Assembly (NCBI GenBank): GCA_040005235.1
Contig: JBDTZG010000007.1
Span: 1 to 64,000 of the forward strand
Length of the DNA stretch: 64,000 bases
Direction of reading: 5' to 3'
Origin: Acidobacteriota bacterium
GTDB lineage: Bacteria > Acidobacteriota > Thermoanaerobaculia > Multivoradales > UBA5704
This document shows positions 11,511 to 61,151 of this stretch, piece by piece; within the stretch, counting starts at the first letter, position 1; each line of letters starts with the position of its first letter. The translations under genes were made by a program, and so were the position numbers. Below the pieces are notes generated by a model that did no database searches, was not told the DNA's origin, and saw nothing but the letters and a program-made list of their open reading frames with translations.

Positions 11511-11571
11511 GCAGGTACTTTTTGACGCATCAATTTATCCACAAACAGAGATCTGGGAAAAGGAGAAAGAG

Positions 11572-38494: not shown

Positions 38495-38507
38495 GGTCGC
38501 TGCAGGG

Positions 38508-38693
38508 TTATGCGCGCCTCAACACCGTTTCTTCTCGTTCCAGGTGCAGCCGAGACAGTTTCTCCTTGGCTGCAGCGGCGCGAAGTCGATAGAACGCGAT
38601 CAGCTCCTCGGCAGACAGGTTCTTGGTTTCTTCATATAGCTCATCGCGAATTCGGCGCACCCAACCGACCGCGTCGATTTCATGATCTTCCAT
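38508..38693 (-). CDS. Small helical protein of the type found downstream of PIN toxins
   Basis: DAV..VRRIRDELYEETK.LS.EE.I.FY pattern; overlaps a PIN C-terminal remnant. Confidence 0.65.
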   Translation of the reverse strand: MEDHEIDAVGWVRRIRDELYEETKNLSAEELIAFYRLRAAAAKEKLSRLHLEREETVLRRA

Positions 38694-38730
38694 AGCTCGT
38701 CACCTCGCGGGGTGAGTAGATCTGCGCAGG
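38680..38730 (-). pseudogene. C-terminal remnant of a PIN-like gene
   Basis: Reads AQIYSPREVTSYGRS*, resembling the I.SP.EV terminus of PIN proteins. Very short. Confidence 0.4.
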
Positions 38731-38747
38731 CCGGATTTACCTACCCT

Positions 38748-39020
38748 CTATGCCGCCCGGAGTGGAAGGTAGTCCTGCTCGCCCAAAGGCAGCTCGCCGA
38801 GGTCCGATAGAAGCTGGTTGAGGCGCCCAAGAGCCACCGCCTGTGGGGCAGTGATCTCGACCCCCAAGGGTCGTCCGTTCGAGGAGTAGTCCACGACCAG
38901 CAGTCCGTCCGATGACGCCGCGGTCCTGGTGCTCCTCTGGCCGGTCGGATGCGATAGGTGCAGATACGCCGCAAAGGGACGACCTTTTCGGTAGGTGATC
39001 TGTAAGGTTCGTTCCGTCAT
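38748..39020 (-). CDS. DUF2283-family protein
   Basis: AAYLHL...S.RT......LVVDY...GRPLGVEI. Confidence 0.78.
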   Translation of the reverse strand: MTERTLQITYRKGRPFAAYLHLSHPTGQRSTRTAASSDGLLVVDYSSNGRPLGVEITAPQAVALGRLNQLLSDLGELPLGEQDYLPLRAA

Positions 39021-39222
39021 TCGGACACCTCGTACATAGTCACGACGACGAGCAAAGCCAGTTCAGGATCCGGCTCGACGATCACGATCCACGGGCGCCG
39101 CGCCTTACGGGTGTAGATCATGAATCGACCTTCGACCACGCCGGGCTCGAAGCGCGCGGCGCGCTCCAGCATAGCCCGAACTTCGATCTCGGTCACACCC
39201 CGCTGCTCCATCCGCAGCTCGG
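39017..39222 (-). pseudogene. DUF4258-family (RelE/BrnT-like) gene, apparently 5'-truncated
   Basis: ELRMEQRGVTEIEV...W.VIVEPD....LVVVT.Y with ATGA coupling to DUF2283. The expected H before ..RM..R is replaced by AT-richer DNA. Confidence 0.62.
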
Positions 39223-39345
39223 CAGGACATACAATTGAGTATGTTCCATTAATGCGAACGCAGCTACCGAAATCGACGGAGTGAGACCGGAGCGGTTTTA
39301 GTCAGCATCGTTCGCGTAGCGAAGCCCCGACTCACTTCGGTCTTG

Positions 39346-39975
39346 TCACGCTGGTTTTTTGTTCGCCGGTCCACCCGTATCTAACGCCACATTTCTTACT
39401 ATCTGCACGCACTTCCAAACATCGCCCGAATCACATGAGACCCTTGCGAAATAGGTTACAACCCACGCTTGCGCATGAAAAGTGCGATAAGTTTGGAACC
39501 GCCCTGTCTCACCCGTGTCAACGACAGCGACTCGCAATGCACCATCGGTCAGCTCCAGAGAATCTTTCCAGTGATCGATAGTGTCTATTGGCTGAGACCC
39601 TGACTCGTCGCTTACGAGGACTGCAACAGCGGGCCGGGGATTCCAGATAGCACTTCCTCCAACGTTCTTGAGTGACAGCGAAATCGTATGCAGCATGAGG
39701 CCGCTAGGTAGTGAGTGGACACAGACATTCAGATCTAGCTCTGCGCGGGTAGCGAGCGTGCGTCCATGGAAGAAGCGGAAATATGACAAGACAGCACCAA
39801 CTATAACAACAATGATATTGACAAAACTAGATGTTGCATCTAGCGCTTCCTTGTGCGCTTTAAGCGTATCCCATGTGATAATGCCTGACTTGATCAAGTT
39901 TGCTACACTCAGTACGAGGATAGCAACACTCAGAAATGCAATCGCAAGCCCCCGACGGCGTCCTGACCAGATCAT
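39346..39975 (-). CDS. Low-GC hypothetical protein with two N-terminal TMs
   Basis: 209-aa ORF with atypical codon usage. Confidence 0.7.
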   Translation of the reverse strand: MIWSGRRRGLAIAFLSVAILVLSVANLIKSGIITWDTLKAHKEALDATSSFVNIIVVIVGAVLSYFRFFHGRTLATRAELDLNVCVHSLPSGLMLHTISLSLKNVGGSAIWNPRPAVAVLVSDESGSQPIDTIDHWKDSLELTDGALRVAVVDTGETGRFQTYRTFHAQAWVVTYFARVSCDSGDVWKCVQIVRNVALDTGGPANKKPA

Positions 39976-39979
39976 TTAT

Positions 39980-40078
39980 TCACCTGAAAAAAAGAACGCC
40001 CAAGACGACCAAAATACCAGTAAGAAAAATGATTACCCAAAAGTTGATGACTCGTGTCTGCTTACGCGCCATGGCCAC
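39980..40078 (-). CDS. Small single-TM peptide (30-32 aa)
   Basis: AGGAGG 8 nt before GTG. (MA)MARKQTRVINFWVIIFLTGILVVLGVLFFR*, ending 4 nt before the next ATG. Confidence 0.6.
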   Translation of the reverse strand: MAMARKQTRVINFWVIIFLTGILVVLGVLFFR

Positions 40079-46147: not shown

Positions 46148-46612
46148 ATGAGCCCTGAAGACGATCTGCACCGAGACCGACGCCGCGTGATCCTGGATCT
46201 TCTCCGGGCGCGCCGGGTCGCGAACCAGCTGGAGCTGGTGGGGCTGCTTGGTCTCCAGGGGATTGAGGCGACGCAGTCGAGCGTCAGCCGCGATCTGCGG
46301 TTTCTCGGGGTGGCGAAAGTCGCCGGGCACTACGTGGCGCCCACGGGCGACGTGCCGGCCGGGGCAGATTTCGGGCCGATCGGCCGCTTCGTCCATGGCG
46401 CGCGGACGGCGGGACCGAATCTGATCGTGCTTGAAACCGCGGTCGGTACGGCGCAGACGGTGGCGATCGCGATCGATCGCTCCGGCTGGCCCGAGGTGGT
46501 GGGTACTTTGGCGGGCGACGACACGATCTTCGTCGCCACCGCGAACGCGCGGGATCAACAGCGGTTCCTTCGTCATCTGGACCTTTTGCGGGAGGAACAC
46601 ATCCATGGCTGA
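46148..46612 (+). CDS. argR: Arginine repressor
   Basis: NQLELV..L...[31 protein letters not shown]. Confidence 0.95.
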
Positions 46613-47867
46613 TACGACTGAGACGACTGAGAGGACGGCGATTCCTGGTCTCGATCCGCGCCGCGGCGAGCCGATCGTCCTGGCGTTTTCCGGCGGGCTC
46701 GATACGTCGTACTGCATCCCCTGGCTCGCCGAGAGCTACGGCCGGCCGGTGGTGACGGTGACGGTCGATACCGGCGGGCTCGATTCCGCGGCGGCCGACG
46801 AGTTGGCCGAACGTTCGCGCGCTCTCGGGGCCGTGGCGCACCACCGCATCGAGGCTAGGACCGAATTCTTCGACCGGGTGCTCCGGTTCCTGATCCTCGG
46901 AAATGTCCGGCGGGGTCAGCTCTATCCGCTCTGCGTCGGCGCCGAGCGGTCAATCCAGGCGCAGGCCGTCGCCCACGCCGCGGCGGGGCTGGGCTCGCGC
47001 ACGGTGGCCCACGGCTGCACCGCGGCGGGCAACGACCAGGTCCGGTTCGAGGTGGCGCTCCGGACGCTCGCCCCGAGCCTCGAAATCCTCGCTCCGGTGC
47101 GCGACCATCCCCGGCCGCGGGCTTCGCAGGTGGCGTATCTCCAGGCGAAGAATCTGCCGATTCCGCCGTTCGGCGCCGCCTATTCGATCAATCGCGGCCT
47201 GTGGGGGACGACGATCGGCGGCCAGGAAACGCTTACGAGCGAAGGCACGATCCCCGAGGAGGCGTGGGTGCTGTCGCACGGCGCTTTCGACGATCCGCGC
47301 CCCGCGGCTTTCCATCGGCTCGGATTCGTGCGCGGCATTCCGACCTCGTGGGACGGCGAGAACCTCGCGCCCGTCGAGCTGATCGAGCGGATCGAGCGCG
47401 AGGCGGCGCCGTATGCGATCGGCCGAGGAATCCATCTCGGCGACACGATTCTCGGCACCAAGGGGCGGGTGGCGTTCGAGGCGCCGGCCGCGGAAGTGCT
47501 GCTCGTCGCCCACCGCGAGCTGGAGAAACTGACCCTCACCGGCCGGCAGCAGCGGGTGAAGGAAACCGTCGCCGCCACCTATGGCGATCTGGTCCACGAG
47601 GGGCAGCATCTCGATCCGGTCTGCCGCGACATCGAGGCGCTGTTGCTGTCTTCCCAGGAGCGGGTGACGGGAGAGGTGCGGCTGCGCTTCCGGCCGGGCA
47701 ACCTGTTCGTCGAGGGGGTTGTGTCGTCCTTTTCGTTGCTCGCCGCCACGCGCGGCGTCTACGGTGAGGCGGCGGGGGAGTGGACATCGGAGGATGCACG
47801 GGGCTTGTCGCGTTTGGCGGCTCTTCCCGGCATGCTCCATCGGCGGGCCGGTTCGGAGGACCTCTAA
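46605..47867 (+). CDS. argG: Argininosuccinate synthase
   Basis: [45 protein letters not shown]. Confidence 0.95.
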
Positions 47868-48953
47868 ATGAAAGCCGTGATTCTCGACAAGATCGCATCG
47901 GTGACCCGCACCTGCCGCTTGAAGCGAGAGGTGCTCACCAGCTCGGAGATTCCCTGCCGCGAGGGGATCGTGGTCGCCGTGCGCGTGCTGACCGACAAGA
48001 CGACCTATAACCAGATGGAGCTGCCGAGCGGCCGGATGGCTCTGGTGAAGAAAGGCGACGTGATCGCCGGTGCGCTCGGCCACCGTCAGGCGCTGTTCGG
48101 CTATTCCGGGCACCTGCCCGACCACCTGGTGCCGGGCGACAAGGTCCAGCTGCTCAACATCGGCGGCGTGATCGGCATCTGCGATTCGATCAATCCGGAC
48201 CTGGGGCCGCCGTTCGAGGCCGAGGTGATCGGCGCCGTCCTGTCGTTCCCGTTCCTGGGCGAGCGGGTGGGCGTGCCGGCGCGGATCGGCGAACGGCCGC
48301 TCGACCTTTCCGCTCCGTTGGAGGCGGCCGGGGTGCCGGTGATCGCGCTCGTCGGCTCGTGCATGAACAGCGGCAAGACCGCGGCGGCCTGCACCTTGAT
48401 CCGCCATCTGACCCACGCCGGCTACACGGTCGACGCGTTCAAGGCGACCGGCGTGTCGCTGCGCCGCGACATCCTGGCGATGGAGGACGCGGGCGCCCGG
48501 ACGACGGCGATCTTCACCGACTTCGGCGTCGTTTCGACCTCGGGGGTGAACGCCGCCGCGGTCACCCGGACGATGCTCACCCAACTCGCCGCCGGCAAAC
48601 CCGAGGCGATCATGGTCGAGCTGGGCGATGGGCTGCTCGGCGCCTACGGAGTAGACGCGATCCTCGACGACGAGGAGGTGAAGAAGGCTTTCACCGCGGT
48701 GATCCTGGCAGCGAACGATCCCGTAGCCGCGTGGGGCGGCGTGCGCCTGCTGCGCGAGCGGTTCGGCGTCGAGCCGGTGGCGGTGACCGGACCCGCGACC
48801 GACAACCTGGTGGGCACCCGGATCATCGAGGAGACGGTGGGCGTGCCGGCGATCAACGCCCGCACCGAAGGGGAGCGGCTCGCCAAGCTGGTCCGCTCGC
48901 GTTTGATGCCGTACGACCCCGCGCGCGTCGCGGGCGGGGAGCTCGCATCATGA
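47868..48953 (+). CDS. DUF1611/DgcN-like P-loop protein; candidate alternative N-acylglutamate synthase
   Basis: P-loop VGSCMNSGKT, K.TG....RD...M.DAGA.....F.D.G..ST, VELGDGL. Starts right after the argG stop and overlaps argC. Function is inferred. Confidence 0.75.
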   Translation: MKAVILDKIASVTRTCRLKREVLTSSEIPCREGIVVAVRVLTDKTTYNQMELPSGRMALVKKGDVIAGALGHRQALFGYSGHLPDHLVPGDKVQLLNIGGVIGICDSINPDLGPPFEAEVIGAVLSFPFLGERVGVPARIGERPLDLSAPLEAAGVPVIALVGSCMNSGKTAAACTLIRHLTHAGYTVDAFKATGVSLRRDILAMEDAGARTTAIFTDFGVVSTSGVNAAAVTRTMLTQLAAGKPEAIMVELGDGLLGAYGVDAILDDEEVKKAFTAVILAANDPVAAWGGVRLLRERFGVEPVAVTGPATDNLVGTRIIEETVGVPAINARTEGERLAKLVRSRLMPYDPARVAGGELAS

Positions 48954-50029
48954 TCTCTTCCCACCACACGGCACGCACAGTGGTGATCGGCGGCTCGGGC
49001 TACGTTGCGGGCGAGCTGCTGCGGCTGCTCGCCGTCCATCCGTTCCTGCGCGACCTGGCGGTGATTTCCGAGAGCAAGCCGGGCACGCGGATCGAGGAGG
49101 CGTTTCCGCATCTCGAAGGGGCGTATCCCGATTTGAAGTTCCTGGGGACCGATGCGCTGCCGCGGCTGTTCGCCGAGAACGAGACGGTCGCGGTTTTTTC
49201 GGCCGCGCCCCACGGTGCGTCGGCGCCGCTCGTCGATTCGCTGCTCCTTAATGCCGAGCATGCGGGCGCGCGCGTGCGGTTGGTCGATCTGTCGGCCGAT
49301 TTCCGCTTTCCCGATGCCGGAAGCTACGAGCAGGTTTACGGCCACCCGCACGGCGCGCCGGGGCGGCTGGCTGAATTCGTCTCTGCCGTGCCCGAGCACT
49401 TGGCCGAAGCGCCGCTCGGGCGGGTCTCCCATCCGGGATGTTTCACCACGTCGGTTCTGCTCGCCTCGGTGCCTCTCCTTTCTCTTGGGCTGATCGAGCC
49501 GCGATTCACCGTGGTCGCGGTCACCGGCAGCACGGGCGCCGGGCGAACGCCGACCGCCACCACCCACCACCCGGAGCGGCGCAGCAACCTGTTCGCCTAC
49601 AACCCGCTCGGCCATCGCCACGAGCCCGAGATGCGGCTTCACGCGGGCAAGGCCGCCGGCCGGCCGGTCGAGATCGCATTCGTGCCGCAGTCCGGACCGT
49701 ACGCCCGCGGTATCTACGCGACGATCCAGGCCCGCCTGGCGAGGCCGGTCGATCTGGAAGAGATGGTGGCGGGGGTGGCGCAGTTTTACGCCGGCTCGCC
49801 GTTCGTCAAAGTCGCCCCGGCGGGCGGCAAACCGCCGCGGCTGCAAGACGTCGCCGGCACCAACCGGGCGCTGCTCTCGTTCGCACTGCGCGGCGAGGAT
49901 CTGGTCGCGTTCTCGACCCTCGACAACCTGGTCAAAGGCGCGGCCGGCGGCGCGGTGCAGTGGATGAACCGGTTGCTCGATCTGCCCGAGGTCGCAGGGT
50001 TGGCGCAGCCGGGGTTGGGCTGGATCTAA
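48950..50029 (+). CDS. argC: N-acetyl-gamma-glutamyl-phosphate reductase
   Basis: GGSGYVAGELLRLL..HP, DLSADFR, PGCF.T, G.TGAG, HRH.PE, DNLVKGAAG.AVQ.MN. Confidence 0.95.
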   Translation: MISSHHTARTVVIGGSGYVAGELLRLLAVHPFLRDLAVISESKPGTRIEEAFPHLEGAYPDLKFLGTDALPRLFAENETVAVFSAAPHGASAPLVDSLLLNAEHAGARVRLVDLSADFRFPDAGSYEQVYGHPHGAPGRLAEFVSAVPEHLAEAPLGRVSHPGCFTTSVLLASVPLLSLGLIEPRFTVVAVTGSTGAGRTPTATTHHPERRSNLFAYNPLGHRHEPEMRLHAGKAAGRPVEIAFVPQSGPYARGIYATIQARLARPVDLEEMVAGVAQFYAGSPFVKVAPAGGKPPRLQDVAGTNRALLSFALRGEDLVAFSTLDNLVKGAAGGAVQWMNRLLDLPEVAGLAQPGLGWI

Positions 50030-50065
50030 AAGATTTTCGAACGGCAGATCAAGAAGGGGAACGAG

Positions 50066-51268
50066 ATGGTCGAGCTTGAAACAGCACCGGCGAAAGCCGC
50101 CGAAGACGAAGCCCGCTGGCTGCTGCCGGTCTACGCCCAGCTGCCGGTCGAGCCGGTGAGCGGATCGGGTGTCGTGCTCAAGACCCGCGACGGCCGCGAG
50201 CTGCTCGATTTCTACGGCGGCCACGCGGTGGCTCTCCTCGGTTACGGCCATCCGCGCCTGCTGGCGGCGCTGGCCGCCCAAGCGGAGACGATGTTCTTCC
50301 AGAGCAACCTGGTGCCGCTCGAAGTGCGCGCCCGCGCGGCGCACGCCCTGGTCTCGTTCGCTCCCAAGGGATTGACGCGGGCGTTCCTGGTCAACAGCGG
50401 CGCCGAGGCGAACGAGAACGCGTTGCGCCTCGCGATCCGGCAGACCGGACGCGGCCGGGTGATCGCTCTTGAAGGGAGCTTCCACGGCCGCACCGCGGCG
50501 GCGGCGGCGGTCACCTGGGGGTCGGAGAAATGGGCCGCCTTCCCCTCGAATCCGTTTGAAGTCGAGTTCGTGCCGGTCGGCGATCTGGACGCGCTGGAGC
50601 GCGCTCTCCAACCTCGCGGTGAGGGCGATTCCGGCGTCGCCGCTTTGATCCTCGAACCGGTGCAGGGGATGGCCGGCGCGGTCGATCTCGGCGCTTCGTA
50701 CCTGTCTGCCGCGCGCGAATTGACCCAAGCCGCCGGGGCGCTGCTGATCTTCGACGAGGTCCAGTGTGGCATGGGCCGCACCGGCCAGCCGTTCGCGGCG
50801 CAGCTCCATGGCGTCACCCCGGATCTGCTGACCACGGCCAAGGGCCTCGCGGGCGGATTTCCCGCCGCCGCGGTGCTGGTCTCGGATGCGGCGGCGGCGG
50901 GTTTGAAGAAAGGTGATCTCGGCACCACGTTCGGCGGCGGGCCGCTCGCCTGCGCATTGATCGAGGCGACGATCGGCGCGATCGAAGAAGAGGATCTGCT
51001 CGCCCGGGTGCGACGGCTCTCCGCTCGCCTGCGGTCCGAATGCCTGGGCGGCGTCGTGACTTCCGTTCAGGGCGCCGGTTTTCTGCTCGGCCTGCGCTGC
51101 GTCCGTCCGGCCAAAGAGGTGCAGGCCGAGCTGCTCGATCGCGGCCTGATGACCGGCACCAGCGCCGACCCGTACGTGCTGCGGCTGCTGCCGCCGCTGG
51201 TGCTCGAAGACGCCCATGTGGACGCGCTGGTCGCGGCGCTTCGCGAGCTGCCCGGGGCTTCTGCATGA
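50066..51268 (+). CDS. argD: Acyl-ornithine aminotransferase (class III PLP)
   Basis: NSGAEANE, SFHGRT, EPVQG, FDEVQCGMGRTG, AKGLAGG, GTTFGG.PLA. Confidence 0.92.
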   Translation: MVELETAPAKAAEDEARWLLPVYAQLPVEPVSGSGVVLKTRDGRELLDFYGGHAVALLGYGHPRLLAALAAQAETMFFQSNLVPLEVRARAAHALVSFAPKGLTRAFLVNSGAEANENALRLAIRQTGRGRVIALEGSFHGRTAAAAAVTWGSEKWAAFPSNPFEVEFVPVGDLDALERALQPRGEGDSGVAALILEPVQGMAGAVDLGASYLSAARELTQAAGALLIFDEVQCGMGRTGQPFAAQLHGVTPDLLTTAKGLAGGFPAAAVLVSDAAAAGLKKGDLGTTFGGGPLACALIEATIGAIEEEDLLARVRRLSARLRSECLGGVVTSVQGAGFLLGLRCVRPAKEVQAELLDRGLMTGTSADPYVLRLLPPLVLEDAHVDALVAALRELPGASA

Positions 51269-52320
51269 AGCGCTTCGTCTCGCTTTCCGAGCACTCGGGC
51301 GAAGAGATCGGCGAGCTGCTGGCGCTAGCCTCGCGGCTGGAGAAGCATTCCGATCCGGCGGCGCTCTCTCGCACGTTGCCGGGCAAAGTTCTCGGGCTGC
51401 TGTTCTTCAACCCGTCGCTCCGGACGCTTTCGAGTTTCCAGGCGGGCATGGCGCGGCTCGGCGGCTCGTGCTTCGTGATCTCGCCCGGTCAGGGGAGCTG
51501 GCAGCTCGAAACCCGCACGGGAGTCGTCATGGACGGTGCGGCGGCCGAGCACGTGCGCGAGGCGATTCCGGTGCTCGCGGGCTACGCCCATGCGCTCGGC
51601 ATCCGGTCGTTCGCGGGCGGGACGGATCTCCATGCCGATCTTTCCGATGCGACGTTCGCCGCGATGGCCGCGACGCTCGAAGCGTCATACCCCGTACCGT
51701 TGATCAACCTCGAGTCGGCGATCGACCACCCGTGCCAGGCGCTTGGCGATTGGAAGACGCTCGACGATCTGGGCGTTCCTGCGGGCGGCAAGCTCGTGCT
51801 CAGCTGGGCGCGTCATCCCAAGCCGCTTCCGCTCGCGGTGCCCGCGACCGTAGTGCAGATGGCCGCGGCGCGCGGCATGGACGTGACGGTGCTGCGGCCC
51901 GACGAATACGCGCTTCCCGAGCCGCTGATGGCGCGCGCCCGGGCCTCGGCCGCCCTTTCCGGCGGAACGGTTTCTGAGACCGCGGATCGGGAGGCGGCGA
52001 TTGCCGGAGCGCACGTGATCTACGCCAAGTCGTGGGCTTCCGCCAAGCACTACGGCGATCTGGCAATGGAAACCGAGCTGCGCGCCCGCTACTCCGACTG
52101 GACGGTCGACGAGTCGTGGTTCCGCCCGGCGGCGCCCGGCGCGCACTTTCTTCACTGCCTGCCGGTGCGGCGGAACGTGGTGGTCGCGGACGAAGTGCTG
52201 GACGGGCCGCGGAGCGCCGTATTGCCCCAAGCCCACAATCGGATGTGGGCGCAGATGGCGGTGTTGCATCGAATGTTGGGCGGGTTGGCCGGCTTGGCCG
52301 GACAGGAGGGAGCCGCATGA
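51265..52320 (+). CDS. argF: N-acyl-ornithine carbamoyltransferase (ArgF'; AOTCase/SOTCase family)
   Basis: FFNPSLRT, W.LE...G.VMDG...EH..E, HPCQ, HPKPLP, YAKSW, HCLPVRRN. Confidence 0.92.
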   Translation: MKRFVSLSEHSGEEIGELLALASRLEKHSDPAALSRTLPGKVLGLLFFNPSLRTLSSFQAGMARLGGSCFVISPGQGSWQLETRTGVVMDGAAAEHVREAIPVLAGYAHALGIRSFAGGTDLHADLSDATFAAMAATLEASYPVPLINLESAIDHPCQALGDWKTLDDLGVPAGGKLVLSWARHPKPLPLAVPATVVQMAAARGMDVTVLRPDEYALPEPLMARARASAALSGGTVSETADREAAIAGAHVIYAKSWASAKHYGDLAMETELRARYSDWTVDESWFRPAAPGAHFLHCLPVRRNVVVADEVLDGPRSAVLPQAHNRMWAQMAVLHRMLGGLAGLAGQEGAA

Positions 52321-53240
52321 ATCACCACGATTCGAACCTAGAAGTCGCAGGCTTGAAGCTCGCGATTCCGTATATCCGCCTCTATCAGGGCAAGACCTTC
52401 GTGATCAAAGCCGGCGGCGGCGCGTTCGCCGACGAGCGGACCACGATCGCGCTGCTCGAACAGGTGGAGATCCTCCATCGGCTCGGCGTGCGGGTGGTGC
52501 TCGTCCACGGCGGCGGGCCGCAAGCCTCGGCGCTCGCCGCGATCTTGGGCGCTTCGGTCGAGTTCAAGGCCGGCCGCCGGGTCACCGATCCGGTCTCGCT
52601 CGATGCCGCGACGATGGTGTTGAACGGCGCGGTCAACACGCAGATCCTCGCCCTCTGCCGCCGGGTGGGCGTACCGGCGGTGGGCCTTTCGGGCGTGGAC
52701 GCCGGCCTGATCGTCGCGCGCCGCCGGCCGCCGGTCGAGGTGGACGGCGAGACCGTCGATTACGGCCTGGTGGGCGACGTGATTCGGGTCGATCCCAAAG
52801 TGGTGCTGGCCCAGCTCGACGCGGGGCTGGTGCCGGTCGTGAGCCCGATCTCGGCCGACGAGGCGGGCGGCCTGCTGAACGTCAACGCCGACACGGTCGC
52901 CGCCCGGCTCGCGGTCGCTCTTTCTGCCGAGAAGCTGATCGTTCTGACCGGCGCCGCCGGCATTCTCGAACGCGAGGAGGACGCGGGGTCGCGGATCTCC
53001 TACACCGACCTCGCGGGGCTCGCCGAGCTGAACAGCAAAGGGGCGCTCGGCGCCGGCATGCGGCCTAAAGCGGCGGCGATCGAGCAGGCGTTGCTCCAGG
53101 GAGTCCGGCGGGTTCACGTGATCTCGCAGACCGCTCCCGACGCGCTGCTGCGCGAGGTGTTCACCAACGAGGGGAGCGGCACCCTTGTGGTGGCCGACAT
53201 CCACGCCCTCTCCCCTGCCGAGCTGGCGGCCGCGGGTTAG
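52317..53240 (+). CDS. argB: Acylglutamate kinase (no fused GNAT domain)
   Basis: PYI..Y.GKTFVIK.GG, VHGGGPQ, GRRVTD, NVNAD, GMRPK, EVFT..G.GT; 307 aa. Confidence 0.94.
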   Translation: MNHHDSNLEVAGLKLAIPYIRLYQGKTFVIKAGGGAFADERTTIALLEQVEILHRLGVRVVLVHGGGPQASALAAILGASVEFKAGRRVTDPVSLDAATMVLNGAVNTQILALCRRVGVPAVGLSGVDAGLIVARRRPPVEVDGETVDYGLVGDVIRVDPKVVLAQLDAGLVPVVSPISADEAGGLLNVNADTVAARLAVALSAEKLIVLTGAAGILEREEDAGSRISYTDLAGLAELNSKGALGAGMRPKAAAIEQALLQGVRRVHVISQTAPDALLREVFTNEGSGTLVVADIHALSPAELAAAG

Positions 53241-53249
53241 GCCGGATCA

Positions 53250-54353
53250 GTGAACGCTACCCCCTCGCCTGCGGACGTTCTCGCGCTCCACCGGCTCGCG
53301 GTCTCGACCCCTTCGGTTTCCGGCGACGAAGGTCCTCTCGCCGAGCACATGGGCGCCTGGCTCGGAGCGCGCGGTGCATGGGTCGAGCGCCTGGGAAACA
53401 CTCTGCTCGCGATCTACGAGAGCGAAATCCCGGGGGCGTCGCCGACCGCGCCGATCATTCTCCTCGACACCCATCTCGACACCGTGCCCCCCGCGCCCGG
53501 TTGGTCCCGCGATCCGTTCGCGGCGACCGTCGAGGAGGGGCGCGTCTACGGTCTCGGGTCGAACGACGCCAAAGCCTCGGTCGCGGCGATGTCGGCGGCA
53601 TTCGTCGCCTGTCTCGGCCGGCCGCTGCCGTTCACCTTGGCCCTTGCGTTGGTCGAGCAGGAAGAGACGAAGGGTCTGGGCACCGAACGCGTGCTCGCGG
53701 CGCTTGAACAGCGCGGCCGGCGCCTCGCGAGCGCGATCGTCGGCGAGCCGACGGGGCTCGACGTAGCGGTCGCCCAGAAGGGGCTGATGGTTTTAGAGCT
53801 GGTTGCCCGCGGCGACGCCTGCCACGCGGCCCACGCCAAATCGCTCGGCGCTCGAAACGCGGCGCGCGAGTTGGCGCGCGACCTGCTCGCGCTGGAAGCG
53901 ATCGAATTCCCCATCCACGAGGCGCTGGGGCCGGTCACCGTCGAGCCGACCCAGCTGCGCGCCGGCACCGCGCGCAACGTCCTCCCCGCCGAGGCGGCGG
54001 CGTTGCTCGACGTGCGGACCACGCCCGCCATCTCGCCGGAAGAAATCGCGCTCGCGATCGGCGGGGCGGTGGGCGCCGAGATCCGCGTGCTCTCCGACCG
54101 CCTCCGGCCGCGTGCGACTCCCGAAGATTCGCCGCTGCTGGCCGCCGTTCTCTCCGTCCGTCCGGTCGCGCGGCTGTACGGGTCGCCGACGCTCTCCGAT
54201 TGGGCGCTGATCGACGCGCCCGCGATCAAATGCGGCCCCGGCCGGTCCGAGCGCTCGCACCGGGTGGACGAGTACGTCGAAGAGGAAGAAATCCTCGCCG
54301 GGGTGCGGTTCTACGGCGAGTTGATCGATGCGCTCGCCCGAGGGTGGCGATGA
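53250..54353 (+). CDS. argE: M20 deacylase (acyl-ornithine/acyl-citrulline deacylase)
   Basis: PSVSGDE, THLDTV, GLGSNDAK, EE, GEPT, HAAH, GPG.S..SH..DEY. Confidence 0.9.
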   Translation: MNATPSPADVLALHRLAVSTPSVSGDEGPLAEHMGAWLGARGAWVERLGNTLLAIYESEIPGASPTAPIILLDTHLDTVPPAPGWSRDPFAATVEEGRVYGLGSNDAKASVAAMSAAFVACLGRPLPFTLALALVEQEETKGLGTERVLAALEQRGRRLASAIVGEPTGLDVAVAQKGLMVLELVARGDACHAAHAKSLGARNAARELARDLLALEAIEFPIHEALGPVTVEPTQLRAGTARNVLPAEAAALLDVRTTPAISPEEIALAIGGAVGAEIRVLSDRLRPRATPEDSPLLAAVLSVRPVARLYGSPTLSDWALIDAPAIKCGPGRSERSHRVDEYVEEEEILAGVRFYGELIDALARGWR

Positions 54354-55555
54354 CCCGGCTCTGGGATAAAGGCGTGCCGCTCGACGAGCGGGTGCTCCGC
54401 TACACCGCGGGCGAGGACCACGCCCTGGATGAGCGGCTGGTCGCTTACGACGTCCGCGCCTCGATCGCTCACGCCGAGATGCTGACCGGACAAAAGCTAT
54501 TGGCGGAAGAAGATCTCGCCGCAATCCGCGCCGGCCTCGAAGCGCTGGGCGCCGAGCACGCCGCGGGAGCGTGGCGGATCGAGCTGGCGGACGAGGATTG
54601 CCACACCGCGCTCGAACGGCGGCTCACCGAACGAATCGGCGAAGCCGGCGCGCGCATCCACCTCGGCCGTTCGCGGAACGACCAGGTGCTCGCGGCGTTA
54701 CGCATCTATTTGCGCGACGCGGTGGCGAATCTGGCCGAAGGTGCCCGGGCGATCGGTTCGGCGCTCGACGATCTCGCCGCGCGCCATTCGGACGTTGCGC
54801 TCTCCGGCTACACCCACATGCAGCCGGCCATGCCGAGCACCGTGGCGCTCTGGGCCGGCGGCTTCGCGAGCGAGCTGCGCGACGACGCGGAAGGGTTCGA
54901 GGCGGCGCTCCGGCGGATCGACAAAAATCCGCTCGGCTCCGCCGCCGGCTACGGCGTCCCCGCCATTCTGCCGATCGACCGCGAATCAACGCGAGAGAAG
55001 CTCGGCTTCCGCGAGATCCACCAGCCCGTGACCGCCGTCCAGCTCTCTCGCGGCAAGGCCGAAGCGCAGGTGCTGTTCGAGGTCGCCCTTCTGCTCCAGG
55101 ACTGCGGCCGGCTGGCCGCCGATCTCGTCCTCTTCTCGATGAAAGAGCTGGGCTTCGTGAGCCTGCCGGCCGAGATGACAACCGGCTCGTCGATCATGCC
55201 CCAGAAGCGCAACCCGGACGTCTTCGAGCTGATCCGAGCCCGCACCGCAGCGGGCCACGCGGGCCTGCTCGAAGCGCTCGCGATTCCGGCCAAGCTCCCG
55301 TCGGGATACCACCGCGATCTCCAATTGCTCAAAGCTCCCCTCTTTCGCGGCATCGACCTCGCGCTCGAAACTGGCGCGATCCTCGCTCACGCGCTCCCCG
55401 GCGTCCGCTTCCACCCGGAGAAGATTCATCTCGATCCGGAGCTGTCCGCGGCGGAAGACGCCTATCGGCTGGTGCTCGAAGAGGGGATCCCGTTCCGCGA
55501 GGCCTATGCCCGGGTGGCGGCGGGGCTGGCGCACGATAAGATGCCGAAACGCTGA
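54350..55555 (+). CDS. argH: Argininosuccinate lyase
   Basis: RLWDKG, IH.GRSRNDQV, GYTHMQ.AMP, TGSSIMPQKRNPD, GY.RDLQ, PFREAY. Confidence 0.95.
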   Translation: MTRLWDKGVPLDERVLRYTAGEDHALDERLVAYDVRASIAHAEMLTGQKLLAEEDLAAIRAGLEALGAEHAAGAWRIELADEDCHTALERRLTERIGEAGARIHLGRSRNDQVLAALRIYLRDAVANLAEGARAIGSALDDLAARHSDVALSGYTHMQPAMPSTVALWAGGFASELRDDAEGFEAALRRIDKNPLGSAAGYGVPAILPIDRESTREKLGFREIHQPVTAVQLSRGKAEAQVLFEVALLLQDCGRLAADLVLFSMKELGFVSLPAEMTTGSSIMPQKRNPDVFELIRARTAAGHAGLLEALAIPAKLPSGYHRDLQLLKAPLFRGIDLALETGAILAHALPGVRFHPEKIHLDPELSAAEDAYRLVLEEGIPFREAYARVAAGLAHDKMPKR

Positions 55556-55629
55556 CCTTGGCTAAGCACGATCCGCGCTCACACCCTTCCGGCGTAGGTG
55601 TGTCCGTTGTCAGCATGAAGAGACCGGTC

Positions 55630-58302
55630 ATGAAGAAAATCTGCTGGGCCTTGGCGCTTGCCGCCGCGCTCTCGCCGTCCGCCTCTTGGGCACTCAGCCC
55701 GTACCTGGTTGCAGATCTCGACCCCGGCTTTTTCAGCGCCGGCTCGCAGCCGTACGGTTTCGTTTCGCTGGGATCGCGGGTGGTCTTCCAGATCCTCGAA
55801 AAGCCGGTGCTTTGGGGCACCGCGGGCGTGTTGGATGATCCGGTTCCCCTGGGTCCTCCGAATTTGCGGGTCGATACGGCTCCCGTGGCTGCCGGGGGAC
55901 GCGGGTATTTTAACGGCTGCGACGGCAGCGACTGCGGTTTCTACGCCACCGACGGCACACCCGCGGGGACTCGGCGGCTCCTCCGCTTCCGGTTCGCTTC
56001 GTTCTTTACGCCCGAGGCGGTGGCGCCGGCCGGACTGCCGCGCACCCTGGTCATTTTGAGCGCCGAAAACGGCCCTACGCTCTGGCGCACCGATGGCACC
56101 CCCGCGGGCACACGTAAGGTCGGGGCGCCCGCGCGTGCGCGCCGCCTGCGCGAGCTGACCGAATTCCGCGGCAAAGGTTGGTTCTTCGCCGATCTGCCGA
56201 ACGCGCCCGGGGCGCTCCTGTCCTCCGACGGCCTGGCGGCCGGCACCCGGCGAATCGGCACATCGACGCTCGGGTCCGGTTTCACAACGCTCGGTGGACG
56301 GCTGCTGTTCTACGCCGACCAGGGCATCTGGGCGAGCGACGGCACGGCGGCCGGCACCGGCCGGCTCGCGGCCCTGCCCGGCCTCGACCCCAGCTTTAGG
56401 CCGCCGATCGTCGCCGCGGGCGGCCGCGCCTTCTTCTTTTACCTCGGCGGGGGCGAACGGGAGCTTTGGACCACCGACGGCACCCCCGAGGGCACGCGCC
56501 GGGTCAAGGCGGTCGCGGGTGATGGCCGGAACGATCTTCGGGCGCTCGGCGCGAAAGTCGGGTTCGTCGGTTTCGACGCGGCCCGCGGCGCGGAGCTTTG
56601 GACGAGCGACGGCACGGCCGCGGGCACCCGGCAAGCCAAGGACCTCTGCCCCGGCCCGTGCAGCGGGGTTTCCGAGCTGGGTCCCTCGGCGCTCGGAAAG
56701 ATCTGGCTCGCTGGAACGACCCCCGATCGCGGCCTGGAGGTCTGGACCAGCGACCTTTCACCTGCCGGCACCCGCCAGCTGCGCGACCTGTGCGCGGGGG
56801 CCTGCTCCAGCGATCCACGCCAGTGGCGGGCGGCCGGAGGGCGGATGTATTTCCTCGCCCGCGTCGATTTCGTCGAGCGCCTGATCGCGAGCGACGGCAC
56901 GGCGGCGGGCACTCTGGCCGTCGGGGTCCCTGCGCGCGCCGCCCGAACGCTCGACGCCGTACCGCTCGGCGCGGCCCTGGTCTTCGTGGGATACGGCGCC
57001 GCGCAGGGCGAAGAGCCCTGGATTTCGGACGGTACTGCCGCGGGCACGCGGCTGCTCGCCGATCTCGACTCCGCCAACCTGGCCGGCTCCTACCCGCTCT
57101 CCTATGCCGAAGCCGGGGGCCGGCCGTTCTTCTTCGCCTTCGATGGCATCCTAACGACCTGGCTCTGGACCACCGACGGCACCGCCGAGGGAACCCGGGT
57201 CGCCTACGAATTGCCGGACGAGCTTTGCCTGGAAGAGATCGGCCGGACCGCCGAGGCCGGCGGGCGGCTCGTGGCCTTCCTGGAGATGTGCGAAGAGGAT
57301 CGTCTGTTCGAGGTGGTGGGAAGCGACGGCACCCCGGCCGGCAGCGGGCCGCTCCTGCCCGCGGGCGTGTTCGGCGACGGCCGCTTCGTGCCTGCGGGCG
57401 GCCAGGTGTTGTTCAGCGCCTTCGACGAGGTCCACGGCTTCGAGCTCTGGTCGACCGACGGCACTCCCGGCGGAACTACGCGGCTCTCCGATTTCGTTCT
57501 TCCCGATCCGTTTCGTCCCGAAGGCGCGGGATTCCCGATGTTCTTCTCTTTCGGAGACCGTGCGGTCGTTCCCGTGCTCTCGGTGGCTGGCGGCGAGGAG
57601 CTTTGGATCTCGGACGGTACCGCAGCCGGCACCCGCCCGCTCCACGAGGTCTTCCCCTTTCTGGAGGCGCCGCTCGAAAATGCCAAAAGCGCGACTGCGG
57701 CGCTCGACGGCCGGTTCTACTTCGTCGCCGCTGCGCCGGGGGATGCCGCGGCGACGCTTTGGAGTACCGATCTCTCCGCCTCGGGCACGCGATCGGTCGG
57801 GCCGCTCGATCTCTCGCGCGCCGAGGCGGGCGGTTGGTCGCTCTTCCCGCTCGGCGTCAAGCTCCTCCTCTCCGGTTCTTCGACCACGCTGGGGCAAACG
57901 CTCTGGACCAGCGACGGAACCGCCGCTGGAACGCGCCTGGTCGGCGCCCAGCCCATCAGCTCGCTCCTGGCGCCGGTCGCATTCTCGAACCGCCTCTGGT
58001 TTCAAAACGAATTCGGCGAGCTGTGGTCGACCGACGGCACGACCGAGGGCACGAAGATCTTCGAGATCGACGGCGGGCCTCTGTTCCCTCTGGCGCTCGC
58101 CCCGTTCGCCGGCCGTTTGATCCTCTCCTCGCGCCAGGGCTTTTTCGCGAGCGACGGAACCGCCGCGGGCACCGTGCGGATTGACCTGCCGGGTCCCGCG
58201 GGTCCCTACCCGGGCTCGCTGCTACCGGTGGGGGACCGGCTCTACTTTAGGTGGGACGACCTCGTGCATGGCGCCGAGCCCTGGGCGCTTCGCCCCGATT
58301 GA
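55630..58302 (+). CDS. Secreted ELWxxDGT-repeat beta-propeller protein
   Basis: Signal peptide and many ELW(T/S)(S/T)DGT.AGT repeats. Confidence 0.92.
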   Translation: MKKICWALALAAALSPSASWALSPYLVADLDPGFFSAGSQPYGFVSLGSRVVFQILEKPVLWGTAGVLDDPVPLGPPNLRVDTAPVAAGGRGYFNGCDGSDCGFYATDGTPAGTRRLLRFRFASFFTPEAVAPAGLPRTLVILSAENGPTLWRTDGTPAGTRKVGAPARARRLRELTEFRGKGWFFADLPNAPGALLSSDGLAAGTRRIGTSTLGSGFTTLGGRLLFYADQGIWASDGTAAGTGRLAALPGLDPSFRPPIVAAGGRAFFFYLGGGERELWTTDGTPEGTRRVKAVAGDGRNDLRALGAKVGFVGFDAARGAELWTSDGTAAGTRQAKDLCPGPCSGVSELGPSALGKIWLAGTTPDRGLEVWTSDLSPAGTRQLRDLCAGACSSDPRQWRAAGGRMYFLARVDFVERLIASDGTAAGTLAVGVPARAARTLDAVPLGAALVFVGYGAAQGEEPWISDGTAAGTRLLADLDSANLAGSYPLSYAEAGGRPFFFAFDGILTTWLWTTDGTAEGTRVAYELPDELCLEEIGRTAEAGGRLVAFLEMCEEDRLFEVVGSDGTPAGSGPLLPAGVFGDGRFVPAGGQVLFSAFDEVHGFELWSTDGTPGGTTRLSDFVLPDPFRPEGAGFPMFFSFGDRAVVPVLSVAGGEELWISDGTAAGTRPLHEVFPFLEAPLENAKSATAALDGRFYFVAAAPGDAAATLWSTDLSASGTRSVGPLDLSRAEAGGWSLFPLGVKLLLSGSSTTLGQTLWTSDGTAAGTRLVGAQPISSLLAPVAFSNRLWFQNEFGELWSTDGTTEGTKIFEIDGGPLFPLALAPFAGRLILSSRQGFFASDGTAAGTVRIDLPGPAGPYPGSLLPVGDRLYFRWDDLVHGAEPWALRPD

Positions 58303-58335
58303 CCTCGACGATTCGAATCCAGGAGTGAAGACGCC

Positions 58336-61020
58336 ATGAATTTCCGCCGCTCGATCCTCGCCGTTCTCGGCGTCGCTTTTCTCTTTCTCGCCGCCAGCAT
58401 TCCCGCGCGGGCGCTTGTCCCGTACCGCGTCGCCGACATCGATCCCACCTTCCGGAGCGTCGGATCGGACCCCAACCGCTTCGTGCGGGTCGGCGCCCGC
58501 TCGCTGTTCGTGGCCACCACGCCCGGCGTCGGCCTCTGGTCGAGCGACGGCACCGCGCCGGGCACGGTGCGTCTGGTGCGCAACCAGGTTTCGATCGAGC
58601 ACTTGGTCGCAACAGGAGACCTCGCCTTTTTCATCGCCTGCGACCCGACGCTCTGCCGCCTTTACTCCGCCGACGGCACGGTGGGCGGAACGCGAGCGAT
58701 CGCGTCGCCGTTCGTTTCGGCGTCGCCCGCCGCGGTCGCCGCCGGGCCGCGCCGAATTTATTTCGCCCGGCAGACCCCCGCCTTGGGCAGCGAGCTGTGG
58801 ACCAGCGACGGCACGCTCGCAGGCACCCGCCTGGTCAAGGATCTGGCGTCCGGCCCCGGCGGCTCCACGCCGAGCCGGCTGGTCTGGTTCCGCGGCCGCC
58901 TCTGGTTCTTCGCGCTCGATGGCCTCTGGACGAGCGACGGCACGGCCTCCGGCACGCGGCGAATCGCCACGGTCGGCAGCGCTTTCCAGGCCTCCTCGGC
59001 CGGCTCGCGGCTGCTGTTTTTCGCGGCGGCGGCGGGCAGCCCCCAGGCGCGTCTCTGGTCGAGCGACGGCACGGCCGCGGGGACGCGCGTTCTGGCGGGT
59101 GTCGCTCCGGTGGAGTCTGCCACGGTGCGGCCGTTCGGTTCGACCGCGACCGAAGCGTTTTTCTTCATCTCGCGGGAAGATCCGGCCGACGCCCGCCAGG
59201 AGCTGTGGGCGAGCGACGGGACGCCGGCCCGCACCCGCAAGCTCGCGAGGTTCGAGGCGGGCAACGCCGCAACGCCGTTTCTCGTCGTCGGTTCGCGGGT
59301 CGGATTCCTCGCTTACGACTCCGAGCACGGCCGGGAGCTTTGGGCGAGCGATGGCAAACCCGGCGGGACGCGCTCCCTCGACATCTGCCCGGGCAACTGC
59401 GATGGCGTGGAAAGACTCGGAGTTTCCGACGGCCTCCGGATCTGGTTTGCCGGCGACGACGGAGTTCACCGCTCCGAGCCCTGGATCAGCGACCTCACGC
59501 CGGCCGGGACCCGTCTGATCAAGGACATCGTCCCCCTCTCCACGTCGAACCCTGAAGGGTTTATTGCGGAGGGAGGCAAGGCGTATTTCATCGCGAGCGG
59601 CTTGGCGGAAGAGGCGCTCTGGACCAGCGACGGCACCGCCGCCGGTACGTTCCGGATCGTGCGCCCGGCCGAGGACGTGTTTTTCTCGCTCGGGCTCGGG
59701 ACGATCGTCGGTGGCCGGGTCTTCTTCCGGATGGACGACTCTGTGCACGGCGCCGAGCCGTGGGTCTCCGACGGCACCGCGGCGGGATCGGCGCTGGTCG
59801 CCGACCTCGACCCGAGCCAGGACGGCGGCTCGGCCCCGCACCAGTTGAGCGCCGGGGGCGCGCGTTGCTTCTTTTTCGCCAACGCAAAATTCGGCGAGCG
59901 CGAGACGGAACTCTGGTCGTCGGACGGCACGGCGGCGGGGACCGCTTTTCTGGAGCGATTCGAATTCGGCTTCGAGCTGATCGCCCAGGCCGACCTGGGA
60001 TCGCGCGTCGCGCTGGTCGAAGGCCGGGGCGGGGTCGAAATCTGGCTCAGCGACGGGACCGCGGACGGCACCTTTATCGCCCACGGCAATGATGTGTACC
60101 CGACCGGCAGGATTCGCGCGGTCGGCAGCCGGCTCTTCTTCGAAGCGTCGGACAGCGATCACGGCGATGAGCTGTGGACCACGGACGGCACCCCGGCGGG
60201 GACCCTGCGGCTCACCGACTTCACGAATCCCGAGCCGTTCACCGACACTTTCAACTTCCAACGCGCCGCCTTCCGAGTCCTGGGGGATCGCCTCGTGTTC
60301 CTCGCCGCCGACGCCTTCGGCCGCTTCGAGCCTTGGATCTCGGACGGCACGATCGGCGGCACCCGCCATCTCGGCGAGGTTTATCCCGCGATCGCCGCGC
60401 CGCTCGCCGAGCTGTCGAGCGAGATCGTGCCGGTCGGTAACCGCTACTTCTTCGTCTCGGGCGAAGAGACCACCGTCGACCCCGGCCTTTGGGTCACCGA
60501 CCTCACGGCGGCCGGAACGAAAAGAATCGGCGATCTGCGCGATCCGCAAGGTCGGTGGGTGGCCGAGGCAGGGCTCTTCGCGCTCGGCTCGCGGGCGATC
60601 CTTTTCTACCAGGGGCAATTCGACGACGTGGGCTTCGTGACGAGCGACGGCACCACGCTCACGCCAGGGGCCGGCGTCGGGCTCCCCTTCGGCGTTACGC
60701 CCGTCCTTTGGGGCAGCCGCCTCGTCTTTCGCGCAGAGGACGGTCTTTACGCCACCGATGGCACCCCCTCCGGAACCGTGCAGCTCCACGGAGCCAACGG
60801 CCAGGAGATCCGCGCCACCGCCTACGCCCTGATCGGCGGCCGGCTCGCCTACCTTGCCGCCGACGGCATCTGGGAGACCAACGGCACCCCGGCGGGCACG
60901 AAGCGGCTCCTCGCCCCGCGCGAAGGCCAGACTCTCGACTTCGTCCGCGCGGGCGATCGCATCTTCTTCCCCTGGTACGACAAGGCGACCGGGGTCGAGC
61001 TTTGGGCGCTGCGGCCTTAG
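58336..61020 (+). CDS. Secreted ELWxxDGT-repeat protein (tandem paralog)
   Basis: AGGAG RBS, signal peptide ARA, same repeat order and WALRP terminus as the previous gene. Confidence 0.93.
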   Translation: MNFRRSILAVLGVAFLFLAASIPARALVPYRVADIDPTFRSVGSDPNRFVRVGARSLFVATTPGVGLWSSDGTAPGTVRLVRNQVSIEHLVATGDLAFFIACDPTLCRLYSADGTVGGTRAIASPFVSASPAAVAAGPRRIYFARQTPALGSELWTSDGTLAGTRLVKDLASGPGGSTPSRLVWFRGRLWFFALDGLWTSDGTASGTRRIATVGSAFQASSAGSRLLFFAAAAGSPQARLWSSDGTAAGTRVLAGVAPVESATVRPFGSTATEAFFFISREDPADARQELWASDGTPARTRKLARFEAGNAATPFLVVGSRVGFLAYDSEHGRELWASDGKPGGTRSLDICPGNCDGVERLGVSDGLRIWFAGDDGVHRSEPWISDLTPAGTRLIKDIVPLSTSNPEGFIAEGGKAYFIASGLAEEALWTSDGTAAGTFRIVRPAEDVFFSLGLGTIVGGRVFFRMDDSVHGAEPWVSDGTAAGSALVADLDPSQDGGSAPHQLSAGGARCFFFANAKFGERETELWSSDGTAAGTAFLERFEFGFELIAQADLGSRVALVEGRGGVEIWLSDGTADGTFIAHGNDVYPTGRIRAVGSRLFFEASDSDHGDELWTTDGTPAGTLRLTDFTNPEPFTDTFNFQRAAFRVLGDRLVFLAADAFGRFEPWISDGTIGGTRHLGEVYPAIAAPLAELSSEIVPVGNRYFFVSGEETTVDPGLWVTDLTAAGTKRIGDLRDPQGRWVAEAGLFALGSRAILFYQGQFDDVGFVTSDGTTLTPGAGVGLPFGVTPVLWGSRLVFRAEDGLYATDGTPSGTVQLHGANGQEIRATAYALIGGRLAYLAADGIWETNGTPAGTKRLLAPREGQTLDFVRAGDRIFFPWYDKATGVELWALRP

Positions 61021-61151
61021 GAAAGGATGGCCCGGAGACTTGGAAACTCGTCAGTCCCGCGCGGCGGCGGGCCGAATGTGCGACCGATTCTCGCGTCTAG
61101 ATCCTTAGAATAGGTCGCACCTCTCGCATTTCAACGGTTTGGAGGACGCCC

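Follow-up and report, generated by a model that had tools for sequence, protein, structure and literature searches.

How does a bacterium commit glutamate to arginine synthesis when its arginine operon holds no recognisable enzyme for the first step, the acylation of glutamate? The question is posed by a 64,000-nucleotide stretch of DNA from an Acidobacteriota bacterium (NCBI GenBank assembly GCA_040005235.1, contig JBDTZG010000007.1, positions 1 to 64,000 of the forward strand), hereafter the window, in which nine genes in the order argR-argG-X-argC-argD-argF'-argB-argE-argH lie on the plus strand between positions 46148 and 55555. We propose that X, the one gene of this operon that reaches no family cut-off, probably encodes the enzyme that N-acylates glutamate in place of ArgA, ArgJ or an operon-linked GNAT, most likely making N-succinyl-L-glutamate. 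This role is supported because the elimination of known synthases, synteny and two independent patterns of complementarity point to it; we infer the catalytic role, the acyl group and the mechanism by comparison. A first-step role for such a gene is not new, being already a published, unconfirmed prediction, to which we return below.

An earlier note, made from the letters of the window alone, had described the operon as tightly coupled, as devoid of ArgA and ArgJ, and as carrying no GNAT fusion on ArgB or ArgH, all of which was borne out. Searches with Pfam and NCBIfam hidden Markov models (HMMs) confirmed the nine genes, their order and their strand. The start of argG overlaps the end of argR, the ATG of X abuts the TAA stop of argG and is preceded by GGAGGA 7 nt upstream, and ATGA stop/start overlaps join X to argC, argD to argF', argF' to argB and argE to argH. 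According to the Pfam searches, ArgB has no acyltransferase domain and ends about 37 residues past its kinase domain, and ArgH consists of the Lyase_1 domain without a GNAT fusion.

The first-step synthase is also missing from the rest of the source genome, an assembly of 6.22 Mb with 100% completeness and 0.33% contamination. The genome-wide search covered the known synthase types, generic GNATs not being excluded individually. It found no ArgJ, no NAT domain (PF04768) and no classical ArgA, the match of the ArgA model TIGR01890 being confined to the kinase part of ArgB (model positions 2-279). For the short mycobacterial-type synthase NF005921 the best score was 20.3 bits against a cut-off of 180, and the operon-linked GNAT of Bacteroidota, a query that matched 22 of 61 genomes of that phylum, had no homologue here at E <=0.001.

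The closest homologues of X are labelled Thermoanaerobaculia (Acidobacteriota) by their sources, and the operon position of X is conserved well beyond them. We read the loci of the best 80 of 498 confirmed X relatives, on contigs from one genome per species; by record title these comprise 11 Acidobacteriota, 2 Planctomycetota, 1 Rhodothermales and 66 Proteobacteria, 21 of the latter Steroidobacteraceae. argC follows X within 600 nt in all 80 loci, and argG precedes it in 77; of the other three, two have room upstream but lack argG, and in the third the contig ends there. More distant X genes (39-42% identity) in three Bacteroidota loci also lie between argG and argC. The placement of X in the arginine operon is thus not due to chance. 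Fusion proteins were rejected as further evidence: 15 longer proteins and P0195 join X to ArgG, ArgC, ArgD or ArgB, but all are single-member clusters and most join operon neighbours, indicating that they are probably gene-call run-ons.

If X performs the first step, it should be found where other synthases are not. Among 301 Acidobacteriota genomes at least 90% complete, ArgC (TIGR01850 at E <=1e-40) was present in 193, and X of the type found in arginine operons (arg-type) in 81, with 79 full-length matches of at least 366 bits and 2 fragmentary ones; all 81 had ArgC. ArgJ was present in 90 genomes, 89 of them with ArgC. Arg-type X and ArgJ occurred together in none of the 301. In three families (f7, f31 and f51), X is carried by some genera and ArgJ by others, indicating that the switch between the two happened more than once, and five same-order relatives that lack X lack ArgC as well. 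Many ArgC genes of ArgJ-type genomes were flagged for one internal TGA; selenocysteine was considered and rejected after four loci had been read. The TGA was taken as a natural stop because in one of the four it stands at the C-terminal end of ArgC, as judged by tblastn, the other three alignments ending before any TGA.

The analysis also covered acyltransferases of the GNAT and NAT types. In a subsample of 75 Acidobacteriota genomes, classical ArgA exceeded its cut-off in one, and in none of the 17 with X. The GNAT part of the ArgA model was missing from 16 of these 17 and matched in one (G020, 36 bits, on another contig), but it matched in 13 of 16 ArgJ genomes, in 8 of the 16 within 600 nt of argJ. 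The open reading frames (ORFs) concerned stand alone (examples of such ArgJ-type clusters are G014:C63:6340-8075, G027:C13:75051-76837 and G070:C1:1591259-1593006), and a GNAT ORF near argJ is presumably a short anaplerotic N-acetylglutamate synthase. Among all 301 genomes, the NAT domain was found in two, neither with X, and the operon GNAT of Bacteroidota in none.

Outside the Acidobacteriota, we searched five X-bearing genomes as a whole, three with proteobacterial or Chromatiales titles, one of Rhodothermales and one of Planctomycetota. ArgJ was absent from all five and ArgA above its cut-off likewise, the strong matches there being ArgB. The Rhodothermales genome belongs to the Bacteroidota, and in a sample of 61 genomes of this phylum, for which completeness was not reported, the ArgF' type was present in 26, arg-type X in 7 and the operon GNAT in 22, where one GNAT match (G335) carries two stops. 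The 26 genomes with the ArgF' type divided into 19 with GNAT only, 6 with X only, one with both and none with neither. Six of the loci were read. A GNAT (PF00583) lies directly upstream of argG in all three clusters that lack X, and in all three X clusters the place between argG and argC is taken by X and a GNAT is missing from the cluster, while ArgE is found in three of three X-less and two of three X clusters. As judged from gene content, the Bacteroidota pattern is what one would expect if one gene had taken over the job of another. Every comparative test that we ran thus favoured the proposal of the earlier note that X replaces ArgA or ArgJ, and co-occurrence of a canonical argA or argJ with X in most X-bearing genomes was not seen.

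One could also imagine that X catalyses another step of the pathway, such as N-acylcitrulline deacylation in operons without argE, or that it is a second kinase. The absence of argE from 67 of the 80 loci, mostly proteobacterial ones, would fit the former. However, an ArgE-type gene stands beside X in the window, in 13 of the 80 loci and in two of the three Bacteroidota X clusters; the presence of X tracks the loss of GNAT, not that of ArgE; ArgB is found in every complete cluster; and no hydrolase metal site is evident among the conserved residues of the P-loop fold. We therefore regard a role in another step as very improbable. The retention of X in the 67 loci without argE likewise indicates that it is not a chaperone of ArgE, and on these grounds both the deacylase and the metallochaperone readings of X were rejected.

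Several observations weigh against a first-step role for X. The accessible text of GapMind 2026 (PMC13759103) lists the role as not confirmed. X accompanies the succinyl-type operon as a whole, and its exclusion of ArgJ could therefore reflect the type of operon and not function; the complementarity of GNAT and X within one operon type answers this objection, but only in Bacteroidota. Arg-type X was separated by a score gap from a paralogous tier outside arg clusters (about 180-220 bits), and the line was drawn after the overlap with ArgJ had been seen, ArgJ being present in three of the nine genomes of that tier. The counts further include three unpublished genomes, two with arg-type X (G023 and G048) and one with a paralogue and ArgJ (G145). 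Without them, arg-type X falls to 79 genomes and the overlap of paralogue and ArgJ becomes two of eight, and the switch within f7, which rests on G023, is lost. Related genomes are, moreover, non-independent samples. Both X and ArgJ are missing from 22 of the 193 ArgC-positive genomes, two of which (G171 and G277) have an argC-argD-argF'-argB cluster with neither of them and with no GNAT in the cluster. Unrecognised synthases must therefore exist, and one could hide in X genomes too. Lastly, G340, a genome of the Bacteroidota, carries X in its arg cluster (C1:3174687-3175697) together with a GNAT elsewhere (C1:1439482-1440039); it may represent a transitional state, or X and GNAT may not be fully redundant.

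Some of these genomes deserve further description. The GNAT of G340 is 70% identical to the operon type and lies 1.7 Mb from X. Of four ArgC-positive loci without X and ArgJ that were read, two (L133, G010:C298, and L134, G004:C1) are lysine clusters, both with a LysX ATP-grasp protein, the former also with homocitrate synthase and the latter with an isocitrate/isopropylmalate-type dehydrogenase. Some strong TIGR01850 matches are thus of the LysY type, and the ArgC counts slightly overstate the number of genomes with arginine synthesis. A further ArgC-positive genome without X and ArgJ (G047) has a GNAT about 80 nt downstream of argB. G171 (L131, on C1) and G277 (L132, on C16) belong to a genus whose other members carry X; an ABC transporter ATPase flanks the cluster in both, SecG and PGK are encoded beside that of L132, and argR was detected only in L132. 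As to the paralogous tier, ArgC is lacking in six of the nine genomes with only low-tier matches (about 200-224 bits), and three paralogue loci that were read have no arg neighbours (L120 6002-7015, L122 5940-7172 and L123 5983-7041, from genomes G002, G089 and G037). One paralogue just passes the DUF1611 model PF07755 with 26.2 bits, and one is oriented divergently to a YheC/D-type ATP-grasp gene at a distance of about 240 nt. The neighbours of the paralogues (a P-type ATPase, a flavin reductase, the YheC/D ATP-grasp protein and a CarboxypepD_reg protein) were uninformative on function.

If a synthase were indeed hidden elsewhere in X genomes, X could be an accessory nucleoside triphosphatase (NTPase) of the succinyl-type pathway. 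It might then serve in assembly or metal insertion, or as a subunit that regulates ArgB or ArgC or senses arginine for them. An accessory function would be in line with the best fold matches of X, which include the regulatory and chaperone SIMIBI proteins SRP/FtsY and HypB, as well as with the G171 and G277 clusters, with the GNAT that G340 keeps beside X and with the many generic GNATs of every genome, which were not individually excluded. It is difficult to reconcile, however, with the one-for-one exchange of X for GNAT in 25 of the 26 Bacteroidota genomes, with the persistence of ArgE in both cluster types, with the lack of ArgA in all 17 X genomes and of its GNAT part in 16 of them, and with the conserved residues of X, which include neither an NKxD motif nor a Cys/His metal cluster. 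We thus consider an accessory function improbable, and continue with X as the putative first-step enzyme.

What kind of enzyme could X be? X stays below the cut-off of every Pfam and NCBIfam family, the best being MobB with 18.5 and 19.9 bits, and neither GNAT nor NAT matches it in these collections. The family is nonetheless large, with more than 7,205 proteins at E <=0.001 among 8,000 candidates scored (90% clustering), falling into 1,472 clusters at 50% identity; among the 120 relatives listed, none carries a Pfam domain, and their source names, where given, read only 'hypothetical protein'. The P-loop and VE.GDG motifs that the earlier note had picked out by eye are present in the translation, as a Walker A motif GSCMNSGKT at residues 163-171 and a Walker-B-like VELGDG at residues 250-255. 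When 54 diverse, full-length members sharing 27-63% identity with X are aligned (alignment A1), P84, G169 and K170 of Walker A, K192, E251 of VELGDG and D284 are invariant, T171 is kept in at least 90% of members, and the majority motif around K192 is KLTG. The NKxD guanine motif and a conserved Cys/His metal cluster are absent from the lists of invariant and near-invariant residues of both this and a 17-member alignment.

An AlphaFold2 model of X computed with A1 (predicted local distance difference test score (pLDDT) 94.7, predicted template modelling score (pTM) 0.91) has two domains, an all-beta N-domain (residues 1 to about 130) and an alpha/beta C-domain of the SIMIBI P-loop fold (about 155-350). 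Foldseek matched only the C-domain to PDB structures, namely to SRP/FtsY GTPases, HypB and dethiobiotin synthetase (E 4e-7 to 9e-6, probability 1.0), with sequence identities of 12-20% and query-normalised template modelling (TM) scores of at most 0.40, values that are low because only half of X aligns. Searching PDB sequences with the A1 profile retrieved P-loop neighbours only, FtsY, BioD and MobB at E 2e-4 to 1e-2, and with the single X protein nothing meaningful. By its Walker A motif, the acidic residue of its Walker B motif and its SIMIBI fold, the C-domain can be counted among the SIMIBI/dethiobiotin-synthetase-like P-loop domains. The N-domain, folded alone with a pLDDT of 70.4, had no Foldseek match in the PDB at E <=0.001; in the Atlas it matched only an unnamed fragment cluster, at 0.86, and no relative was identified.

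This architecture bears on the chemistry of the reaction. It seems conceivable that X performs the same step as an ATP-dependent succinate (or acetate):L-glutamate ligase, phosphorylating the acid to an acyl phosphate, which the amine of glutamate would attack, without a CoA thioester. Within this P-loop lineage, dethiobiotin synthetase, CobQ/CobB and CTP synthase work by way of acyl or carbamoyl phosphates. In both sequence and fold, dethiobiotin synthetases rank among the best matches of X; the Walker A Lys and Thr and the Glu of VELGDG are conserved as described; and in the profile search the invariant K192 aligns with the post-strand-2 Lys of the Mycobacterium tuberculosis dethiobiotin synthetase (VAVCKPVQTG). 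In such a ligase, the BioD-type P-loop would make succinyl phosphate and the novel beta-domain would present glutamate. On the other hand, succinyl-CoA is a cheap and abundant donor; every known synthase of glutamate acylation covered by the accessible text of a 2015 review uses acyl-CoA (PMC4490483); and the one characterised distant relative, of the DgcN type, is described as a D-glutamate acetyltransferase, by citation, in the available part of PMC13759103. A ligase thus appears unlikely, though less so than an accessory function, and what probability it has is a share of that given to the first-step role, not an addition to it; a CoA-independent mechanism with this division of labour between the two domains we judge unlikely to the same degree. 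If it were true, the committing step of arginine synthesis would run on acyl-phosphate chemistry in at least four phyla, and the succinate set free by the deacylase would feed straight back into the reaction.

The nature of the acyl group is suggested by ArgF'. According to the accessible text of a review of transcarbamylases (PMC4581275), E92, N185 and K302 (Xanthomonas campestris numbering) mark acetylornithine enzymes, and A/S/P/V/Q, P and V/I/E at the same positions mark succinylornithine enzymes. In an alignment to the X. campestris chains in the PDB, ArgF' of the window has A94, P189 and V306 at these sites. The mapping assumes a 20-residue tag offset and is supported because it is precisely at these sites that the X. 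campestris chains vary among themselves, as engineered mutants would. Among 71 loci, the pattern was Ala-Pro-Ala in 37, Ala-Pro-Val in 28, partial in 6 and E/N/K in none. The Ala at the third position of the 37 lies outside the published succinyl set of V/I/E and weighs against the assignment, but a succinyl pathway still appears to be the better reading for the window than an acetyl one, which implies that the NCBIfam name 'N-acetylornithine carbamoyltransferase' is probably too narrow here.

Taken together, X would commit glutamate to arginine by converting L-glutamate to N-succinyl-L-glutamate, which ArgB, ArgC, ArgD, the succinyl-type ArgF' and the ArgE-type deacylase would carry on to citrulline, and ArgG and ArgH from there to arginine. 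Transfer from succinyl-CoA is the mechanism that we prefer, and a conservative one by analogy with the reported activity of DgcN, which we take to be a DUF1611 protein using acetyl-CoA; the ATP-dependent ligation described above is its main alternative. In a transfer from succinyl-CoA, the P-loop would hold the phosphates of CoA or of a nucleotide, and the beta domain would hold glutamate.

The genes of the operon are listed below; their limits were set from HMM matches and inspection of start codons, since calling based on third-position G+C (GC3) favoured an antisense ORF across argC-argD.

Genes of the arginine operon, with their positions in the window and the features that support each assignment
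Gene	Product	Position	Strand	Evidence
argR	arginine repressor	46148 (or 46067)-46612	+	PF01316 + PF02863; TIGR01529 93.6 bits, below cut-off
argG	argininosuccinate synthase	46605-47867	+	PF00764 + PF20979; ATG at 46605 preceded by GGGAGGA
X	candidate N-succinyl-L-glutamate synthase, 361 aa	47868-48953	+	no Pfam/NCBIfam family at cut-off
argC	N-acyl-gamma-glutamyl-phosphate reductase	48950-50029	+	TIGR01850 280.2 bits, cut-off 233.6
argD	N-acylornithine aminotransferase	50066-51268	+	PF00202 305 bits; best matches NF002874/TIGR00707
argF'	knotted N-acylornithine carbamoyltransferase	51265-52320	+	NF003384 340.9 bits, cut-off 288
argB	N-acylglutamate kinase	52317-53240	+	TIGR00761 192.7 bits; PF00696 sole Pfam match
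argE-type	M20 deacylase	53250-54353	+	PF01546 + PF07687; ArgE/DapE family matches all below equivalog cut-offs
argH	argininosuccinate lyase	54350-55555	+	TIGR00838 288.7 bits, above cut-off; Lyase_1 only

The G+C content of the operon region is about 0.68-0.70. Elsewhere in the window, where about 0.65-0.70 is the norm, it drops to 0.53 at 10001-12000 and to 0.57 at 38001-40000. Directly downstream of argH follow two plus-strand ORFs, 55558-58302 (914 aa) and 58336-61020 (894 aa), with no Pfam match at E <=1e-4, and after them a plus-strand gene at 61152-63332 whose 726-aa product carries a GmrSD_N (DUF262) restriction-endonuclease domain; together, the ORFs at 55558-63332 may form a defence island. 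At the other end of the window, positions 214-295 (+) match domains V-VI of the group II catalytic intron (Rfam RF00029) with 57.5 bits, against a gathering score of 40.

Of all steps by which bacteria make arginine, glutamate acylation has for a long time been the least settled, with several unrelated solutions and many genomes in which the step appears as a gap. The X family appears to fill this gap in a large group of bacteria from soil and sediment, most of which are uncultured. If its role were confirmed, a fold never before seen in this role would join the known synthases, pathway predictors would stop calling carriers of X arginine auxotrophs, and metagenome surveys would have reason not to count X genes as dgcN.

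The last point concerns the relation of X to DUF1611 and DgcN, which the earlier note had proposed and of which one part stood: the likeness holds for the C-terminal P-loop domain at the level of profile-profile comparison, and fails at the Pfam cut-off and for the N-domain. PF07755 (gathering cut-off 25 bits) did not match X at E <=10, and a genome-wide search at E <=1 missed X as well; two orthologues of X (in G304 and G305) reached 19.4 and 17.2 bits, in the P-loop region only. When A1 was compared by hhalign with an alignment (A3) of 22 bona fide members of DUF1611, drawn from Acidobacteriota and from one proteobacterium, 179 columns were aligned with a probability of 88.6% and an E-value of 2.6e-6, pairing residues 154-351 of X with 160-361 of DUF1611. 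The signal needed the 22-sequence alignment, as against a single DUF1611 sequence the probability fell to 0.4%. The P-loop GT..GK and the E-G-x-G strand correspond, but K192 of X faces a gap or a non-Lys column. PF17396 (DUF1611_N), which is Rossmann-like, scores 72 bits in a true DUF1611 member, and the N-domain of X is instead all-beta. True DUF1611 genes occur at other loci of X-bearing genomes (G301, G023, G085, G097 and G120), and the 50 Foldseek rows listed for X contained no structure of DUF1611. As the N-domains differ and only the P-loop domain aligns, X represents a family of its own, remotely related to DUF1611_C through its P-loop domain. In the Atlas, automatic naming has labelled some clusters of X relatives DUF1611, and the accessible text of a 2025 trench-metagenome survey (PMC12363236) reports dgcN as common in Woeseiales and Rhodothermia; X is found in loci titled Woeseiaceae and Rhodothermales, and some of the dgcN counts of that survey might be X-family genes.

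Compared with known systems, X thus shares with DgcN and other DUF1611 proteins (PF17396 + PF07755) a C-terminal P-loop domain, and differs from them in its N-terminal half. With the known synthases (ArgA, NAT-type ArgA/B, the short GNAT, ArgJ and the Bacteroidota GNAT) it has operon membership and the putative pathway role in common. Their GNAT fold or, in ArgJ, N-terminal nucleophile (Ntn) fold, however, contrasts with the P-loop and novel beta domain of X, to which they have no detected sequence similarity, and the accessible text of the 2015 review of these synthases (PMC4490483) mentions no P-loop enzyme. BioD, CobQ/CbiA, MobB and the SRP GTPases resemble X in the fold of the C-domain and in the Walker A motif, and BioD also in two aligned residues, the post-strand-2 Lys and the acidic one of the E-G-x-G strand, but these SIMIBI enzymes are without the extra 150-residue N-domain of X.

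The nearest precedent comes from GapMind 2026 (PMC13759103; PLoS Genet 12 Nov 2026, 2024 bioRxiv preprint). Its accessible text reports ArgA as missing in Steroidobacter denitrificans and notes that the arginine cluster of Steroidobacter and its relatives holds ACG33_RS14135, a very distant homologue of D-glutamate acetyltransferase, for which it predicts the first-step role with succinyl as the acyl group. Beyond it, literature searches on DUF1611, and on DgcN with D-glutamate, found no other treatment of the role of X. The genes at the corresponding operon position in the 21 loci titled Steroidobacteraceae share 61-67% identity with X, and from taxon, operon position and description we infer that X is probably equivalent to ACG33_RS14135 (A0A127FCT3). 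To this prediction, the present analysis adds a member from another phylum, the exclusion statistics, the displacement of GNAT, the succinyl-type signature of ArgF' across phyla and a two-domain model with an unmatched N-domain. Like X, the Steroidobacter gene is an uncharacterised member of an arginine cluster with a succinyl-type pathway, in a genome without ArgA; it belongs to the Proteobacteria, however, whereas the window comes from the Acidobacteriota and, unlike most of the proteobacterial loci, has kept argE in the operon.

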